A stretch of 63,876 nt of DNA, the filler included, from Rhabdomonas costata (Eukaryota): the NCBI GenBank assembly GCA_019059605.1. It is 42 parts of 42 records of this genome, joined end to end, with 100 filler letters (N's around TTAATTAATTAA, not from the genome) between each part and the next. Parts side by side here need not be neighbours in the genome. Positions count along the whole stretch, not along the records: positions 7,616 to 9,041 come from JAHMHO010016366.1; 41 more parts are not named here. One strand, written 5' to 3'. Of the stretch, positions 1,781-44,486 are shown one piece after another. Within the stretch, counting starts at the first letter, position 1. Each line of letters begins with the position of its first letter. The translations under genes and the position numbers were made by a program. Below the pieces are notes generated by a model. The model did no database searches. It had not been told where the DNA came from and saw only the letters and a list, made by a program, of their open reading frames with translations.

Positions 1781-3674
1781 CGATGTCTTTCTACTGTGGT
1801 TGGCTGGAGCGACGTCTTGTTGGAAAGCACCTTTGTGTGCTTGCGATTCCTCAGAGCATGGCCTGGCTGATCCACCAAATCCAGAGCTGTCATCTGGTGT
1901 GTGAGCTTCCACTTCAGTGCTGTGCCAGGGGCAGGCTGTGCCGCAAACGCTCGTTGACATACAAAGGCCACTGTGTGTGTGAGCAGGCTCCGACGCTGGA
2001 ACAGCAGGCTTGCTGCACTCGCCCGCCGGGGGACAGTGTTTGTATGGAATGGGGCCAGTGGGTTGCGGCGCATTCTTGGTCTTGGGGATCAGACCGCAGT
2101 GCAGCGATTCTGGTGCTTTCGAATGGTTTCTCCCCACTAAATGGGTTGACTCGGATAGCAAAAGCTCAGAAGAATATGCAGCTGGAGTACTACCTTGAGG
2201 TAATCAAAAAAATGAAGTTTGGAAAATGTACGCCCACGTTTTCTATTCGTAGAATTGCAGAAAAATCTACCGGCAATATGACGCTCCATAAGTGGGGGAA
2301 CTTCGGGAAAATCGTATCCGATTGTGTGGGAATCATGCCGACACGCCGACCTAACGTGCAACCGCGTAGCGTCTATTTCTGCGGTGCAAGCTGCAGGGAA
2401 ATATTGGAAAACTGACACTGAGCCAGAAGATTTTGATCTCATGTGTGGCGTTTGCAGGAACACAGACATACAGAGAAAGAGAGAGAGATGTGAGAGAGAT
2501 AGACCATTACCTGTGCAGCAGGTGGCAGTGGTGGCACAGGTGGGGCTGGAACAGCGCGTGTAAGTCACCGGGAGGGTCCCCAGACTGGTGCAGTTCGTCG
2601 CGGGGAAGTTACAGCACAGCTGAGCTGCACAAGAAAGGTTGACAGCATCAAAAATAAACGCTGACAGTTGAGGTTGACGATTAGGCTGTCGACCTGCCCA
2701 ACACGCAGTTTCCAGGGAAGTGCAACACGAATCTGCGGGTTCAAGACTTGTTGGGCTGGAGCTCACTGCGAGTATACGCTTGTGGCCCGCACGCACCAGT
2801 AGACCAATATCGTCAGCTTCGCTTGAGCCACATGCAAACAATAACGCTGCAAAGACCACTACAGGGGTGGAGCCATACTGCTATTGAATGTTACCCCAGA
2901 TCAGCAACATAAGCAGGTCCCCATTTGTCGTCCACACCAACCACCNNNNNNNNNNNNNNNNNNNNNNNNNNNNNNNNNNNNNNNNNNNNTTAATTAATTA
3001 ANNNNNNNNNNNNNNNNNNNNNNNNNNNNNNNNNNNNNNNNNNNNGGTTGTTGGTGCCACACACAGACCTGAGGCGCGAGTGGAAGACAACCTCGCGCAT
3101 CACAATACAAGCAGACGACCCAGCTAAACAACTGTCCCTGCCCGCAGGGTGCTGACGAGCTTGCTTTGGCAGGCTAAGAAACCACAGGATTGTACAATTC
3201 AACCTGCCTTTCGACATTACGGTGGTTTAGGCTTCACGCACCACATTGGCGGGAGGGAATAGATTGCACGGCGTCAACAGGGAGTTTGGGGATTTGAACC
3301 CAGGACCAAACTATTGGGAGAAACCCGAACTGCAGCACCCTTTCGTGAAATCCAAAGCACAAAAGCAAACAGGCCGCGGTATCCCGCCAATCCCGCTAAT
3401 CCAATACTCCCCTCTCATTTCCAAAAAGGGCAACACAGGCGCCTCCGTTACTGCAAAAGCGAATCAAAAAATTCCGACGCTGAAGTCCCCTCATGACGAG
3501 ACCGGAGGAGAACCTGCCCGTGGCTTTGCAGGTCGGTCGTCGATTCGGTTGACTTATTTCTGGACTGTCTTTGTTGAGCAGCATGTAAAATGTGGAGGCG
3601 AACAAGGAAGCATAAAAACCAACGGGGTGCTGCAGCTACTCGTGCTGTGAGGGAAAGACGCACAAAGCACATGC

Positions 3675-6640: not shown

Positions 6641-7617
6641 AGAACAACTCAATGTACGAAAACCTACCAGCGAAGACCCGTTCCGCCGACGAAAAGGTTT
6701 CCATGGTGAAGATGCGGAGAGTGGAGAGCTGGTGCAGCAGCGCTGCACGAGCTGGCTACTGCGCTGTCGTGCGCAGCGCCTGACTTTCTTTGGAGTGGGG
6801 ACGGGACCACCCAAGGAGCGGAAGCCAGGTGTTTCAGAGCATTCAGACTCTTCCGGGAAGGAGGAGGAGGAGGAACTGATGTACCCGAAGCGGCCAATCC
6901 AATCCTATCACAGCAAAGAAAGGAAGAGAGGTTGAGGCAGAGAGCCTGTTTGAGAGGTTGCGGCATCACCACCCTGAATCTAAACCTGACAAAGCATACC
7001 TGTCATAATGTGTCATCGCAACCCACCGCAGTCAGAAGATGTGTCCTAATGTGTTCAAACTACTCGAAACATTAATATATTGCCTTTCCCTGATATATTC
7101 ATGAATGCCATGGGTATTCTTAACAACCACTGCAAACTGTTTTAACCCCCCCCCCCCTCTCTGAAATATGATTATCACGGCACGCAAAGTGGTGGTTGGG
7201 GCGGAGCACCTCAACTTCGGACCCTCTCCAACGACTTTCAGGCGTCAACACCGACAGAGGACGTGAACAGGAACTGGAGCACTGGGACGGCCCAGCCATA
7301 CCCCACACAGATGGTGACTTTCAGAACAGAATGAAAGAGAGAAACATAAAAAGTTTGGGGCAGTACCAAAGACAACCGAGCGGCTGCGCCGCGACCACAA
7401 CAGAAAAACAAATGAGCGGCGATGCAACAGGGTTACAGCAATGGGATGAAAGTCACAAGTCGGGGAAGGGTTAACCCCAGAGTATGCAGACAGCCTTGGA
7501 ACATCACATAAAAAANNNNNNNNNNNNNNNNNNNNNNNNNNNNNNNNNNNNNNNNNNNNTTAATTAATTAANNNNNNNNNNNNNNNNNNNNNNNNNNNNN
7601 NNNNNNNNNNNNNNNAA

Positions 7618-7953
7618 GTTGCTTCGGTTGTGGGTCATCAATGGTAGTGGGAGTTGAACGGTGTGGATTCTCGGTTGGTGGGTAGTGGTGCGTTGGAGTT
7701 GGGTATGGTGCGTATGGTGCTTGTGGATCAGCCTTTGTTTGTAGCGTGTGGTTCCTCGGTGTGTCTAGCGGTATCTAGTGTGGATGTCATTCATTGCTAT
7801 TCGGTTCCGGCTCTTGGTGTGAAGGTTGATGCCATTCCTGGCAGGGTTTTGTGGGTATGTGTTGGTGCTTTGTGTCCTGGTTAGTATTCCGGTTAGTGCG
7901 CTGAGCTTTGTGGGTCGGGTCATGGTTTTATGCCTTGTGGTGTCACTGCGTAT
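7618..7953 (+). CDS. cox2: Cytochrome c oxidase subunit 2, C-terminal cupredoxin domain (mitochondrial type, 5'-truncated by contig edge), with three in-frame TAG codons
   Basis: One frame without indels: VVGHQW*WELNGVDSRL...VDQPL...SSVDVIHCYSVPALGVKVDAIPGR...PG*YSG*CAELCGSGHGFMPCGV. CuA ligand codons His 7792, Cys 7897, Glu 7903, Cys 7909, His 7921 and Met 7930 are intact. TAG at 7645, 7882 and 7894. The 3' end is inferred from homology. Confidence 0.92.
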
Positions 7954-8057
7954 TCCGATGTTGCGTCCGCTTTCAGGGTTTCATGCCTTCCGATCACTCC
8001 TTCCTATCCGGGTTTGCACTCCCAAGTTAGTATCCAGGCCTTCAGGTATCGTGTGTC

Positions 8058-8702
8058 AACCATGCTCTCTGCTTCTAGCGTAGTTGTGTGCATCCTGTCG
8101 CTTTGTGCCTATTGCGCTTCCTTTACGTACCTGTCGATGCAACCATGCTCCCTGTCAACCAAGCCTCAACCATGCTCTCTGGTTCTATTCGTAGTGTGTG
8201 CCTGGGGTTCCTGACGCGCGTGTATTATATTATATTATGTATGCATGTATGTGTAGTGTAGTGTAGTGTAGTGTAGTGTAGCGTAGTGTGTAGCGTAGGG
8301 TCTGTGTTAGGGTTCCTGTTGGTGCGATGCGTTAGTCTCAACCATGCTCACTGTTAACCATGCTCACTGTTGTTGTGTCGGAGGGTGTGTTGGTGCGATG
8401 CGTTACTGGTAGCGTTGGTGGTGTTGGCGTTGGTTGTGTCAGTGGGTCCATGGTGTGATGTCGAGGCGTTGTTGGTGCGTGCTAGGTCTGTGTGCTGTGC
8501 TTGTTGTGGGCTTCTGTAACCATGCTCTCTCTCAACCATGCTCTCCGTTTCGTCTCAAGGTCTCTGGGTCTGTCGTGCTTCCTGTTGTGTCCTCGTGTCC
8601 TGTGCTTCGTTAGTGCTTTGCGTTACAACCATGCTCCCAGCTACCATGCTCACCCCAACCATGCTCTCAACAACCATGCTCTCATGCTTCGTAACCATGC
8701 TC
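8058..8702 (+). repeat. Cluster of 11 same-strand AACCATGCTC decamers downstream of cox2
   Basis: Exact copies start at 8058, 8141, 8168, 8340, 8356, 8518, 8534, 8627, 8657, 8672 and 8693. Variants at 8157 and 8642. Confidence 0.92.
8252..8298 (+). repeat. (GTAGT)n microsatellite
   Basis: Tandem GTAGT units with GTAGC variants. Confidence 0.85.
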
Positions 8703-11700
8703 TCTGTACCTGTATGTGTTCCTGTTTGTGCTTAGCGTTACCGTTACTGTTACTGTTTCTGTGCGTAGGGTTAGTGGTTGTTGTGTTCTTGCTTCGTGGG
8801 TTCATGGCTGTAGGGTAGTTGGTGTCAGAGGGTGTCATGGTGCTACGGTCTCAGGGGCTAGGTGTCAGGGTTCATGCTTTGGGTGTTGGTGCGTTGGGTC
8901 AGAGTTCTAGCGTAGGGTGGTGGTTGCTGCGATGTCAAGCTGAGTATGTTGCTTCTTGTGTTTCTTTGCGTAGGGTGTGTTTGGGTTCTGAGGTTCGTGT
9001 TTTGGGGTTCGTGGTGTTGGGGTCAGGATGTCGGGATGTTGNNNNNNNNNNNNNNNNNNNNNNNNNNNNNNNNNNNNNNNNNNNNTTAATTAATTAANNN
9101 NNNNNNNNNNNNNNNNNNNNNNNNNNNNNNNNNNNNNNNNNGTGTTTTGTTTACGTATATGGCGCATTTTCATCTGAAAACAGAGTGTCCAATACAAACA
9201 TCAAACAGTCAAAACTTTGAGGAAAGATGCATGTCAAACAGCTTTCCTTCAATTGCCTTAAGGCAACCACTATCAGCAAAATATGGGATTTCTCTTACTT
9301 TACTTTTACTGGCACCCAATTGACTAACCCAAATTCACCAGAAAACAAACACCCACAAGTGCATTTAATTTGGTCAGCATCGGTGAAAAACGCTGTTTCA
9401 TTTTCGATATTATTCAACCTTCACGTGCTTCAGCCACATCGCACAACGCACGCAATGATTTCTTCCCTGCATCCCCATGATCGGACCCTTCTCTTTCCAC
9501 TCACTGGTGTATTTTCCACCCAGGGTTACTTCTTCCGTGTGAATAGTACTTCTTCTGCCGGCCTTTTCCTTCCATTTGTGTGTCTTCAACGGCCTCTGCC
9601 ACTGCGCCATTGTTCCGTTTCCTGCTCTCTTTCTTAACATTTATCCGATTCTCCTCTCTTCTTTCATTGACGGTTTTTTACTCCTTGGTTTTCACCGCAC
9701 ACTGCACCGTGTGCCCTTTTCACTTACCCCGACCACCAATCTGCGTGCCACTTTTGCATTCAATCCAGGTCTTGCGTTGCTTTTTTTTTGTAAATTGTTT
9801 TGTTTTCTACCGAACCCCACCGTTGCCAAACTCCTGTGCCTATGCCGCAGTGCCGTGAGTCAACCACCCCCAAATCTCTGTCCGAGAGGTCTCCTTTTTA
9901 GAAGCGTTTTCCACCACTTGTGAAACGGGTAATACCACAAACACCGTGTCATACCATACCAAATCATATGACACCATCCATCACGCGAAGCGCGGAGGGA
10001 CAATTGTGGGGGAAGTTAAACGTTTAGCACCTCTGACATTTACCACTGATGAGCACTTCGGGCTTTTGCAGATTTTTTTAAATTGCCGTTACTGGCTTCG
10101 GCAATACAACTAGGACAAGATTATTCGGTGCGGAGGCCCAGGCGGACGGCTGGGTTGAGACGCTCATGGGGTGGGTGATGCTAAGTTTAGCAGAGCTAAA
10201 CGACCGAACTGGTGACTTTTTTGCGAGGTTATTTAGAGGGGTTTGGTAAACTGTGTCAACTACCGCTAAATGTAATTAGTGAAGCAAAATGCGGTTGAGC
10301 GTATTGTTTTTCTGCCCCCTATAAAGACAACATTAAAGGGGGATTGGAAAACTGCCCGTTAAAGCAGCTAAACGTAAACACCCCCCCCCTCACAATAAAA
10401 GCGGCAAGAGGACCCCTTTCGAGCAACAATGGACGTCCACCACAACCCCAGTGTCACGTGTCAAAGCTGCAAGCTGTTTTCCAAACGAAGAGCCAGCGTC
10501 CGCTGCGCGGAAAATCGAAAAACCCACGCATACGCACCCAGCGGTGGATGCACTCCACAAACCCNNNNNNNNNNNNNNNNNNNNNNNNNNNNNNNNNNNN
10601 NNNNNNNNTTAATTAATTAANNNNNNNNNNNNNNNNNNNNNNNNNNNNNNNNNNNNNNNNNNNNGTGTTGGGTGTGTGTGGGGGTGGTGTGGAAGATAAA
10701 CCAGAGTGAACGTAGAAATATGTGAGGAAAGAGTCAGTGAACTTGATGAGTGTGTGGGGAAGAAGTAGAGACGTAATGGGCGGCGTCGGCGGGTGTTGTG
10801 GATCGGTGTGATGTGATTGTATCATGTGTGTAGCGTGGATGTGGAACGTGTCAAACAAAACTGGAGTGGATTTGATGGTATGGAGTAAATATTGAATGTG
10901 AGGGAAGAGAGGTTTATGGCAGATATGGAAGAGTGATAGATGTCAGGAGGGGCGGTGAAGGTGATGAATCACATAAGGTCCGTGGGAAAATCTTACTCTG
11001 AGGTGTGCATCTTGCCACATCCGATGAAGGAGGTGGAATGTGGTGCCTGAGATGCAAAGATGCGGTGAAGGCCACCTTGGCGTATCGTAAGAATTCTAAC
11101 ACATGGTGATAGCGGCGACGTAAGAACATGGCCGGAGTGACTGGATCAACTGCGGGGACTTCTGGCTGGTTTGGGGTCGCAGTTGCTGCGGTACTCGGAC
11201 CCTGGTGCTGGAGGCCTTAAGGCCTCCATCATCAAGGCTCTGATATTTCTTCGACAGCACCTTTGGGTGAGAGATCATTAGGCATAGCGCGCCAATGGGC
11301 TGCTTTCCGAAAGAGTTGCGAGAGGTGCTACATTCCAGCCATGTGGCAGCGGCGAATGAGGTACGGTGAGTGTCTAGAGCCCACTCATTGAATCGGTGAA
11401 TGTGAGCAGGATACGATATGTGCAGGAATTGTCGACCTTATTGTGTACGTTTTATGTGTGTATGTGTGTGTTTGAGTGTGTGTTTGTGTGTATGTTTGTG
11501 CGTGTGGACGGGGGACAAAAAACAACTGTTCATGACACAAATTGCCGCTGTTGTAATGTGCAGGTGTTTGTTTCTACTGAACACGGCCTCTTTTGCTCAT
11601 TGCATAGGGTGAGACGAAATATAAACTACCACAGAAGAAGAAAAGGAGGCGTACCTGACTGGCAGGCTGAATCAGCGGGCATTGCCAAGCTCAGGGGATG

Positions 11701-11923
11701 GACATGGACACAATGCACTTGCTAATGGGATGAAATCTAACATCATGTAGGAAGCCCTACCAAAACGCAAGATGAAAATATGAACCAGAGGAACGTAGTG
11801 ACGACTGTGAATGCGAACCGTGATCGAAAAAAAAAAGAATACACAAATGGAAGCAACATGAGGAACATGAGCGCAGCGAATGTGAACGACAGAAGAAACA
11901 ACGGAGGAACATGTCAGGAGCTA

Positions 11924-12083
11924 GTGTGAACGTGACAACTGAATTGGCATTATTTCCTGCGGAACCATTACGCTGATGTCACAAGGCATGTATTGCGTAG
12001 CAGGGAATGCCGTAGTAGAATGACAGCATGATACGTAGCGTAGAGTAGTAGGAATAATGCCAATTCAGTTGTCACGTCCACAC
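11924..12083. repeat. Contig-terminal inverted repeat (~33-bp arms)
   Basis: ACGTGACAACTGAATTGGCATTATT and its reverse complement; outer arm runs into the contig end. Confidence 0.9.
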
Positions 12084-12245
12084 AACANNNNNNNNNNNNN
12101 NNNNNNNNNNNNNNNNNNNNNNNNNNNNNNNTTAATTAATTAANNNNNNNNNNNNNNNNNNNNNNNNNNNNNNNNNNNNNNNNNNNNGGGTGTGGGGGGC
12201 ACCACCGGTTTAGTGCCGGCATGGTGGTCATAGCCGGGGGGCAGA

Positions 12246-42521: not shown

Positions 42522-42649
42522 CTGGCGGGAAAACCAAAAANNNNNNNNNNNNNNNNNNNNNNNNNNNNNNNNNNNNNNNNNNNNTTAATTAATTAANNNN
42601 NNNNNNNNNNNNNNNNNNNNNNNNNNNNNNNNNNNNNNNNTGTGTTGGT

Positions 42650-42712
42650 GTGATGGTGATGCTGATGGTGATGGTGATGGTGATGGTGATGGTGATGGTG
42701 ATGGTGATGGTG
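42650..42712 (+). repeat. (TGATGG)n microsatellite
   Basis: Direct observation. Confidence 0.93.
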
Positions 42713-44486
42713 TGGTGAGGGGGTGATAGTGAGTGACGGTGAAGGTCGGCTTCGTGGAGGGTGTTTCGTGTGGAGTGTCAGTTTTGTGTTGAAGGTGTCA
42801 GTAGTGTGGAATGTGGCGTGTGTAAAAGGTGTGCGTGAGGGATAGTGACTGGTGTGTACGCGAGGAGGGACCGAGGGTTTGACGTGATGGAGGGTGTGAC
42901 TGAGGGTGTGACTGAGGGTGTGACAGAGGTTGTGACAGAGCGTGCGTGTGGTTGTGGTATTGGCAAGTGAGTCTGATGGAGGGGTCAATGTCTGCGTGAG
43001 AATCGTGCGTTTTGTTTCTCGGGTTCTGTGCGTATGGTATGGGTCAGTATGTGAGGATGAGCATGAGAATGGTGGTTTTTGCGAATGACAGTGTCATAAT
43101 CAAGTTGGTGGTGTCACATAAGTGTCATTGTTACAATAGATGGTTGATGCGAGGATCAGTGTTGCGTGTCTGAGGGTCATGGTCAAGGTTGCGTGGGACG
43201 TGGAAGGTGGATGGTGAGTGTCAGTTGTGTGTGCGTTGATGGATGGTCATGGTGTCACTGGATGGTAGTGGTTGTGAGAATGGTTTTTGGATGGTTCGCG
43301 GGTCCGTGGTGTGTGTTTGTACGTGGTTGTTTGACGTCCATATGGATTTCCAAGCTGAAATCCCCGACTCCTACCCAAATCAGATGGACCAACATATGCC
43401 GTGAGCAATGACAGATGATGAAGATCATGTCAGGAAGTCCAGACATCCACCACATGAGAATCTACAGGAAGTTCATGATGACAAGGCCTTTGCGAACGCA
43501 ATGTCTCAACTTACATACTAATGGGATAAGCAGTGAGATGCAACTAAGTGGGACGGTACCATTGTGTCAGTTGAACTGTTTTGTGTGATTTATGCGTTTA
43601 AGTTGAACGATACCATGGTAGCAGTAACGCACAATAGCTCCAGTGGTTAGATGGCTAAAAACTACCACTGGTTGATGCACACATGCGGAGTACCACGATG
43701 TGTATATGCCAAGTGCAGGAAGAAACATTGAAACTTTTCCCCACATGTGCCACATGTAATATCGGTACTGAGTATGTCCAGTATTTGCTTGTCATTACAT
43801 GCCACATACTTCCACTCGTGGCACGTTTCTCCTTTTCTTCACGCTTCTTCCTGTTCTCTTCTCTCAAATCCTGGTCTTCTAACTTTTCTTGTGTGGTTAC
43901 TGCTTACTGTTGCGAACGAGCACCGCTGCGAGTGATCCATTCGCTTCCATGAGCTTTGTGTAATCGTACGAACAGCAGCGTTTGGGACTCCACAGTGGTA
44001 TCGAGGAGAACTCATAACCGCTCAGAATCTGCGCCGACCCACACGAGCACGTAGGTCTCCCNNNNNNNNNNNNNNNNNNNNNNNNNNNNNNNNNNNNNNN
44101 NNNNNTTAATTAATTAANNNNNNNNNNNNNNNNNNNNNNNNNNNNNNNNNNNNNNNNNNNNGTGTTTGTGAGTGATGCTTGCTCACTCAGGGGTGTGTAT
44201 TTGTGGGAAGCTTATAGATGCATTTGGGAATCGCTTGAAATGAACCTTGGAGGGTGTTGTGGATTTTGCGGAGTTGGGGTCGTAGTGGATTATTTTTGAA
44301 CTGTAAAAGTTAGCCAACAGGAAAAGTGATGCAAACGTGCTCAGAAAAGTATCTAAGTATCCTTGCCTCTTAGCGGTTTCTGTGCTCGAGGGTTAGAATT
44401 CTTTTTCTGCATTTAAAAAAGATGTGTGCTCTTTTCTCACTTCCCTGCAGCGTCCTTCACGCACGACCCACACGCCATGATTGCAG

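Follow-up and report, generated by a model that had tools for sequence, protein, structure and literature searches.

The closest described system is the mitochondrion of Rhabdomonas costata, for which Soukal et al. (2021, Sci Rep 11:13070, PMC8219788) reported contigs carrying cox1, cox2, cob, and nad4 in a draft genome. Read under code 4, these genes contain many UAG codons where other euglenozoans have Tyr; the authors, who saw no evidence of editing, proposed that UGA encodes Trp and UAG encodes Tyr in this organism. They also noted unusual tyrosyl-tRNA synthetases and compared the R. costata code with those of Labyrinthulea (Zihala et al. 2020) and Clathrina clathrus (Lavrov 2013). In the main text of that paper, the terms 'termination', 'release factor', and 'start codon' go unmentioned and gene ends are not treated. 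The use of UAG for Tyr in euglenid mitochondria, cox2 included, is therefore already known since 2021, and the premise of our first-pass annotation, that euglenozoan mitochondria typically reassign only UGA, to Trp, was out of date. Our literature search found no other report of UAG = Tyr in euglenids. Because the euglenid case is in print, the locus described here serves chiefly as confirmation, and as a warning that TAG should be translated as Tyr when such contigs are annotated. Two points are modestly new: the code is common to at least four environmental lineages besides that of the locus, for which we found no paper saying so, and no stop codon is present near the conserved end of any of these genes.

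The window analyzed here is a stretch of 63,876 bases in which 42 unrelated contigs, of 1417-1441 bases each, are chained via 41 artificial linkers. The contigs stem from a very fragmented assembly, and sequences on either side of a linker should not be taken for true neighbours, even where a feature seems to run across it. The locus lies on a single contig (7616-9041), whose + strand comprises 12% A, 19% C, 32% G, and 37% T and is strongly GT-rich. This contig has the lowest A and the highest T content among the 42 pieces, A amounting to 16-32% in the others. The coordinates of the features are collected in Table 1.

Table 1. Features of the cox2 locus and of its surroundings in the window.
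Feature	Position	Strand	Basis or remarks
Linker N44-TTAATTAATTAA-N44 (44 N each side)	7516..7615	.	Between two unrelated contigs; 41 such in the window
cox2 contig, mitochondrial-type DNA, 1,426 bases	7616..9041	+	Base composition
cox2 3' part, 112 codons, cupredoxin/CuA domain to conserved C-terminal Tyr	7618..7953	+	PF00116, 8iuf_C2
GHQW motif	7633..7644	+	
TAG 1, codon 10, GHQW-x-W	7645..7647	+	Tyr in 3/3 relatives with a sense codon; TAG in two others
DVIH motif, presumed first CuA histidine	7783..7794	+	
TAG 2, codon 89, PG-x-YSG	7882..7884	+	Tyr in 2/2 relatives with a sense codon; TAG in three others
TAG 3, codon 93, SG-x-CAELC	7894..7896	+	Tyr in the one relative with a sense codon; TAG in four others
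CAELCGSGHGFM, presumed CuA Cys, Glu, Cys, His, Met ligands	7897..7932	+	
TAT at last conserved Tyr of euglenid-type COX2	7951..7953	+	Tyr there or terminal in 16/16 references
Repeat-bearing non-coding stretch	8058..8702	+	11 copies of AACCATGCTC, short tandem repeats

Frame 1 of the contig (7618-8022) reads VASVVGHQW-TAG-WELNG ... DVIHCYSVP ... CPG-TAG-YSG-TAG-CAELCGSGHGFMPCGVTAY. Its translation matches Pfam PF00116 with an E-value of 4.9e-25 and a score of 88.2 bits (cut-off 22), residues 4-110 of the fragment covering positions 5-118 of the 120 positions of the profile. Since this single match spans all three TAG codons in one frame, there is no frameshift, and neither TAA nor TGA occurs in frame between 7618 and 7953. 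Among solved structures, the best chain for the fragment is 8iuf_C2 (E 2.2e-30), with residues 3-112 aligned to residues 94-196 of 196. The DVIH and CAELCGSGHGFM motifs, whose residues we take to be the CuA ligands following textbook assignments, are intact and align to the matching CuA motifs of both 8iuf_C2 and 1occ_B. GHQW-TAG-W aligns to QWYW, so that the aromatic Q-W-aromatic-W motif is present along with the CuA ligand pattern (His; Cys-x-Glu-x-Cys-x3-His-x2-Met). The description given in the first-pass annotation, i.e. a cox2 gene in one frame with three in-frame TAG codons (at 7645, 7882, and 7894), free of frameshift, TAA, and TGA, and with intact CuA motif ligands, is thus borne out by the Pfam match and the structural alignments.

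The distribution of stop-type codons among the three + frames is informative as well. We count three TAG codons in the cox2 frame vs two in each of the other frames, whereas TGA is found zero times in the cox2 frame vs twice in each of the others. TAG is hence as frequent in frame as off frame while TGA is absent from the frame, which indicates that TAG behaves like a sense codon. Codons of the Tyr type in the fragment number three TAT and three TAG. Only 2 bases of the contig (from 7616) precede the cox2 piece, and we attribute the missing N-terminal half to the assembly break, the contig starting inside the gene, rather than to a lesion. The N-terminal part, with its two transmembrane helices (PF02790), lies outside the contig and is present in the relatives L001-L008 described below.

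No further domain beyond cox2 was detected by Pfam on the + frames of the cox2 contig. Downstream of the gene, we observe 11 copies of AACCATGCTC at 8058-8702, all on the + strand and confined to this contig, where 0.09 would be expected by chance, and a tandem array of TGTAG (8.6 units) at 8246-8289. AACCATGCTC is absent from all nine related loci, to which the contig shows similarity over cox2 alone. Both the AACCATGCTC copies and the TGTAG array possibly represent mitochondrial repeat elements. In the rest of the window, a tblastn search with the cox2 and cob of the relatives gave 7618-7953 as its sole match and no cob. Two other contigs, 10665-12087 and 42641-44061, show a G-over-C skew, the second opening with a GTGATG-type microsatellite. 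Neither contains a Pfam domain in its + frames, and for this reason they are probably not mitochondrial. Nuclear-type open reading frames of at least 230 residues are also present in the window, and among the six listed none was recognized as conserved. Neither the window nor any of the nine related loci yielded a tRNA gene, and an Rfam scan of the window and five of these loci had no match reaching the gathering score.

When 5.8 billion proteins were searched for relatives, 86 hits were obtained, the closest of which are short open reading frames with 54-69% identity over the alignment. Two of these proteins (P0018 and P0048) end exactly one residue before the place of TAG 2, and two others (P0025 and P0044) one residue before that of TAG 3; other close hits have Tyr at the places of TAG 2 or TAG 3. 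A profile of those proteins, run against metagenome contigs, matched 140 stretches, among which nine were confirmed as relatives (L001-L009). They correspond to four lineages, namely L001/L002, L003-L005 (with no differences in their overlaps), L006 = L007, and L008/L009. The fragment is 67-80% identical to the nine loci, whose cox2 is complete if TAG is read through. For the alignment, we combined the window piece with the cox2 of five relatives and with 16 full-length COX2 from outside the clade, picked from the 86 hits.

The A-poor composition of the cox2 contig recurs in the nine loci (A 8-19%). Coding-strand composition otherwise varies widely among these close lineages: L001 and L002 have 40-42% T and 8-10% A, L003-L005 have a G+C content of about 63%, L006 and L007 have 39-41% G and 11-13% C, and L008 and L009 have 39% G and 8% A, with A being low in all of them. 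Near the conserved N-terminus, the cox2 5' ends of L001-L009 show no ATG. L008 has a TGA one codon before the conserved R-V-V-E-L, a place occupied by TGT or TCA in the other lineages.

Around cox2, little is shared between the loci. When the six-frame translations were compared all-vs-all, similarity between lineages was restricted to cox2 and ended with it, and no conserved downstream gene was seen, such as a divergent cox3, which lies beside cox2 in Euglena gracilis. L001 and L002 stay alignable for about 112 bases past cox2. The + frames of L001, L007, and L008 gave Pfam matches to cox2 alone. On the 6,441-base contig L004, cob (921-1950) is followed by cox2 (2455-3240) on the same strand; the other tested open reading frames of at least 150 residues on this contig, including those in the roughly 3 kb downstream of cox2, gave no Pfam match.

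The residue that TAG stands for can be deduced from the columns in which it occurs. The six clade sequences (the window and five relatives) contain 23 TAG codons distributed over 10 alignment columns. Opposite these codons, Tyr takes a mean share of 0.61, compared to its background frequency of 0.056, while Phe and Leu take 0.10 each and Val 0.09. Tyr is present in nine of the 10 columns and is the commonest residue, or tied for it, in eight. It does not rank first in column 117, which is variable and entirely devoid of Tyr, or in column 226. Columns 117 and 143, which have no Tyr within the clade, count against the Tyr reading. In the three columns of the window, all six sense codons of close relatives encode Tyr, which supports the proposal of the first-pass annotation that Tyr is the best residue for these sites and that UAG is decoded as Tyr.

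The 16 references are less uniform at these sites. At site 1 (column 140), we find Tyr in 14/16 and Phe in 2/16, and at site 3 (column 230) Tyr in 10 and Phe in 6. Site 2 (column 226), with Val in 7 references, Leu in 9, and Tyr in none, counts against the Tyr reading. The COX2 of Euglena type (8iuf_C2) has Tyr at both sites 1 and 3. In place of this Tyr, 1occ_B has Gln at site 3; the earlier statement that Gln is the usual residue there applies to the bovine-type chain, but not to euglenid-type COX2, which has Tyr or Phe. A stricter, independent comparison favoured Tyr less strongly. With a more distant profile, built from 50 of 87 proteins (at least 180 residues long and outside the clade), the three sites of the window scored 3.3 bits for Tyr, 3.1 for Phe, and 1.5 for Gln, Tyr being narrowly first. 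Over the 21 TAG codons which fell in match states, the scores were 17.4 for Tyr, 13.4 for Ala, and 11.8 for Phe; the remaining two were assigned to insert states. Given the narrow margin, our reading leans on the codon exchanges within the clade rather than on this profile.

Codon usage within the complete cox2 genes points in the same direction. The sum of TAT, TAC, and TAG per gene is nearly constant (9, 9, 8, 10, and 10), with TAG contributing 1/9, 2/9, 1/8, 8/10, and 8/10, respectively; the highest shares occur in the two most G-rich genes. TAG and TAT/TAC interchange at the same columns among the four lineages. Indeed, L001 and L002, whose proteins are 97% identical, nevertheless differ at one Tyr column by TAT/TAC vs TAG.

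A second gene is available in L004, and it is from this relative that the support from cob comes, the organism of the window being represented by its cox2 fragment alone. The L004 cob matches PF00033 (E 8.9e-51) and 8iuf_QC (E 1.2e-97). Its core contains two TAG and no TGA, and both TAG codons are opposite Tyr in 8iuf_QC; for the second one, Tyr is also found in 8ab6_C and 7rja_K. Since the cox2 cores and the cob core are without TGA, these cores are silent on UGA = Trp. At the level of sequence comparison, these alignments demonstrate the use of TAG as a Tyr codon in this clade, and the equation of TAG with Tyr is well supported.

We consider it highly probable (roughly 85%) that the locus is the C-terminal half of a euglenid mitochondrial cox2 in which UAG is a sense codon for Tyr, the gene being cut by the contig start. 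The three TAG codons would then encode Tyr in the normal way, alongside TAT, and the coding strand of the genome would be very A-poor and G/T-rich. UAG would presumably be decoded by a tRNA imported from the cytosol, which inserts Tyr, and would no longer be acted on by the release factor of the mitochondrion. In Diplonema, a single mitochondrial release factor of RF1 type is described (PMC12699882), which is the component that would have to change.

Other explanations were weighed against this one, and on the sequence evidence both editing and decay appear unlikely. We see a small probability that the locus is a dead copy, either a nuclear insert or a decaying fragment, in which the TAG codons are nonsense mutations of Tyr codons arising under a G-rich bias. 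Only one third-base change is needed to convert TAT or TAC into TAG, the strand is G-rich, cox2 is incomplete at the contig edge and has no stop codon after it, and scattered gene fragments are known in the mitochondrial DNA of E. gracilis, as described in PMC4700960. However, the reading frame has no frameshift, TAA, or TGA, and all of the CuA motifs are kept. Moreover, Nei-Gojobori counts over the shared 112 codons gave dN/dS values for the window of 0.15 against L001, 0.15 against L002, 0.20 against L006, and 0.10 against L008, whereas synonymous sites are saturated against L003 (pS 0.82, pN 0.26). The values of 0.10-0.20 argue for purifying selection along the lineage and are hard to reconcile with the dead nuclear copy that the first-pass annotation had listed as an alternative. 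The composition is also of mitochondrial type over the whole contig, with no nuclear-like flank. Finally, four independent lineages have TAG for Tyr in complete genes, with up to eight TAG per gene, and these cannot all be dead. It is conceivable that this particular copy could be a scattered gene fragment of mitochondrial DNA, as in E. gracilis, or a recent nuclear insert, but its TAG codons would reflect the native code either way.

RNA editing, by which the TAG codons would be turned into standard sense codons in the mRNA with the code unchanged, is more improbable still. Such a process has precedent in the heavy mitochondrial RNA editing of the sister groups, diplonemids and kinetoplastids, as described in PMC4700960. 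Nevertheless, restoring the Tyr of the relatives would require that the final G of the codon be converted to U or C, and the types suggested by the first-pass annotation, A-to-I yielding Trp and U-to-C yielding Gln, would introduce residues found in no close relative at the three columns. The free exchange of TAG with TAT/TAC between lineages, even within the pair L001/L002, also speaks against editing. In R. costata, the authors saw no indication of editing across cox1, cox2, cob, and nad4 (PMC8219788), and the transcript data of E. gracilis are reported to be without the RNA processing of the sister groups (PMC4700960). The least probable explanation, that TAG encodes another residue, most plausibly Phe, can draw on the distant profile and on the Phe found among the references at sites 1 and 3, but it is at odds with the sense codons of the clade at the three columns, with the low share of Phe over all TAG columns, with the constant sum of TAT, TAC, and TAG across genes, and with the Tyr opposite both TAG codons of the L004 cob.

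We count the absence of a stop near the conserved cox2 end against our preferred reading. Counting from the last conserved Tyr in the window, an in-frame TGA is first reached at 8212-8214 (+87 codons), a TAG at 8254 (+101), and a TAA at 8692 (+247). In the relatives, the next TGA or TAA after cox2 is similarly remote: none in 265 codons, up to the contig end, in L001, and a TGA at +195 in L002, +35 in L004, +238 in L007, and +54 in L008. Past the last aligned stretch of the L004 cob, TAG, TGA, and TAA follow at +278, +331, and +628 codons, respectively. The codon for the last conserved Tyr starts with TA in all six cox2 genes, which fits a Tyr followed by a stop-less end and a UAA completed by polyadenylation alike.

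A broader generalization, which we put forward tentatively and which is rather doubtful at present, is that UAG = Tyr extends beyond a single species and unites a larger and for the most part uncultured euglenid clade with extremely A-poor mitochondrial DNA and no stops at the conserved gene ends. If so, TAG would be Tyr, the cores seen would have no TGA, and neither TAA nor TGA would follow within at least 35 codons, such that translation would have to end otherwise, for instance where a poly(A) tail turns a final TA into UAA, or where the mRNA simply runs out at its 3' end. The absence of recognizable stops raises the testable question of how translation ends in these mitochondria.

Among the known systems, E. 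gracilis is the sole named euglenid that we compared, and the mitochondrial DNA is of euglenid type in that its closest solved relatives are euglenid (8iuf): 8iuf_C2 and 8iuf_QC are the best solved chains for the COX2 of the window and the cob of L004, respectively. The entry code 8iuf appears in a paper on the E. gracilis respiratory chain (PMC10884005). The COX2 of E. gracilis is short, with 196 residues, and has a Val-Tyr end. Its mitochondrial DNA is described in PMC4700960 as missing tRNA genes and low in gene content, which matches the zero tRNA genes in the window and in the nine loci. The two differ in that E. gracilis uses code 4 without UAG = Tyr, according to PMC8219788, and in that COX2 of Euglena type is rich in Ile and Asn, whereas the gene in the window is A-poor and rich in Val, Gly, and Cys codons. 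The R. costata data of PMC8219788 resemble the window in the in-frame UAG codons at Tyr positions, cox2 included, and in the very fragmented draft genome.

Outside the euglenids, the mitochondria of Labyrinthulea and of Clathrina clathrus have the same UAG = Tyr, as cited in PMC8219788, where the change in Clathrina is described as combined with UGA = Trp and with CGN read as Gly. As these lineages are unrelated, the change arose independently. The change of UAG to Tyr belongs to the less common departures from the standard code, and the euglenid case represents a third independent origin beside those of labyrinthulids and calcareous sponges. What the present comparison adds is a set of at least four environmental lineages with this code, in which the share of TAG among Tyr codons peaks in the most G-rich genes.
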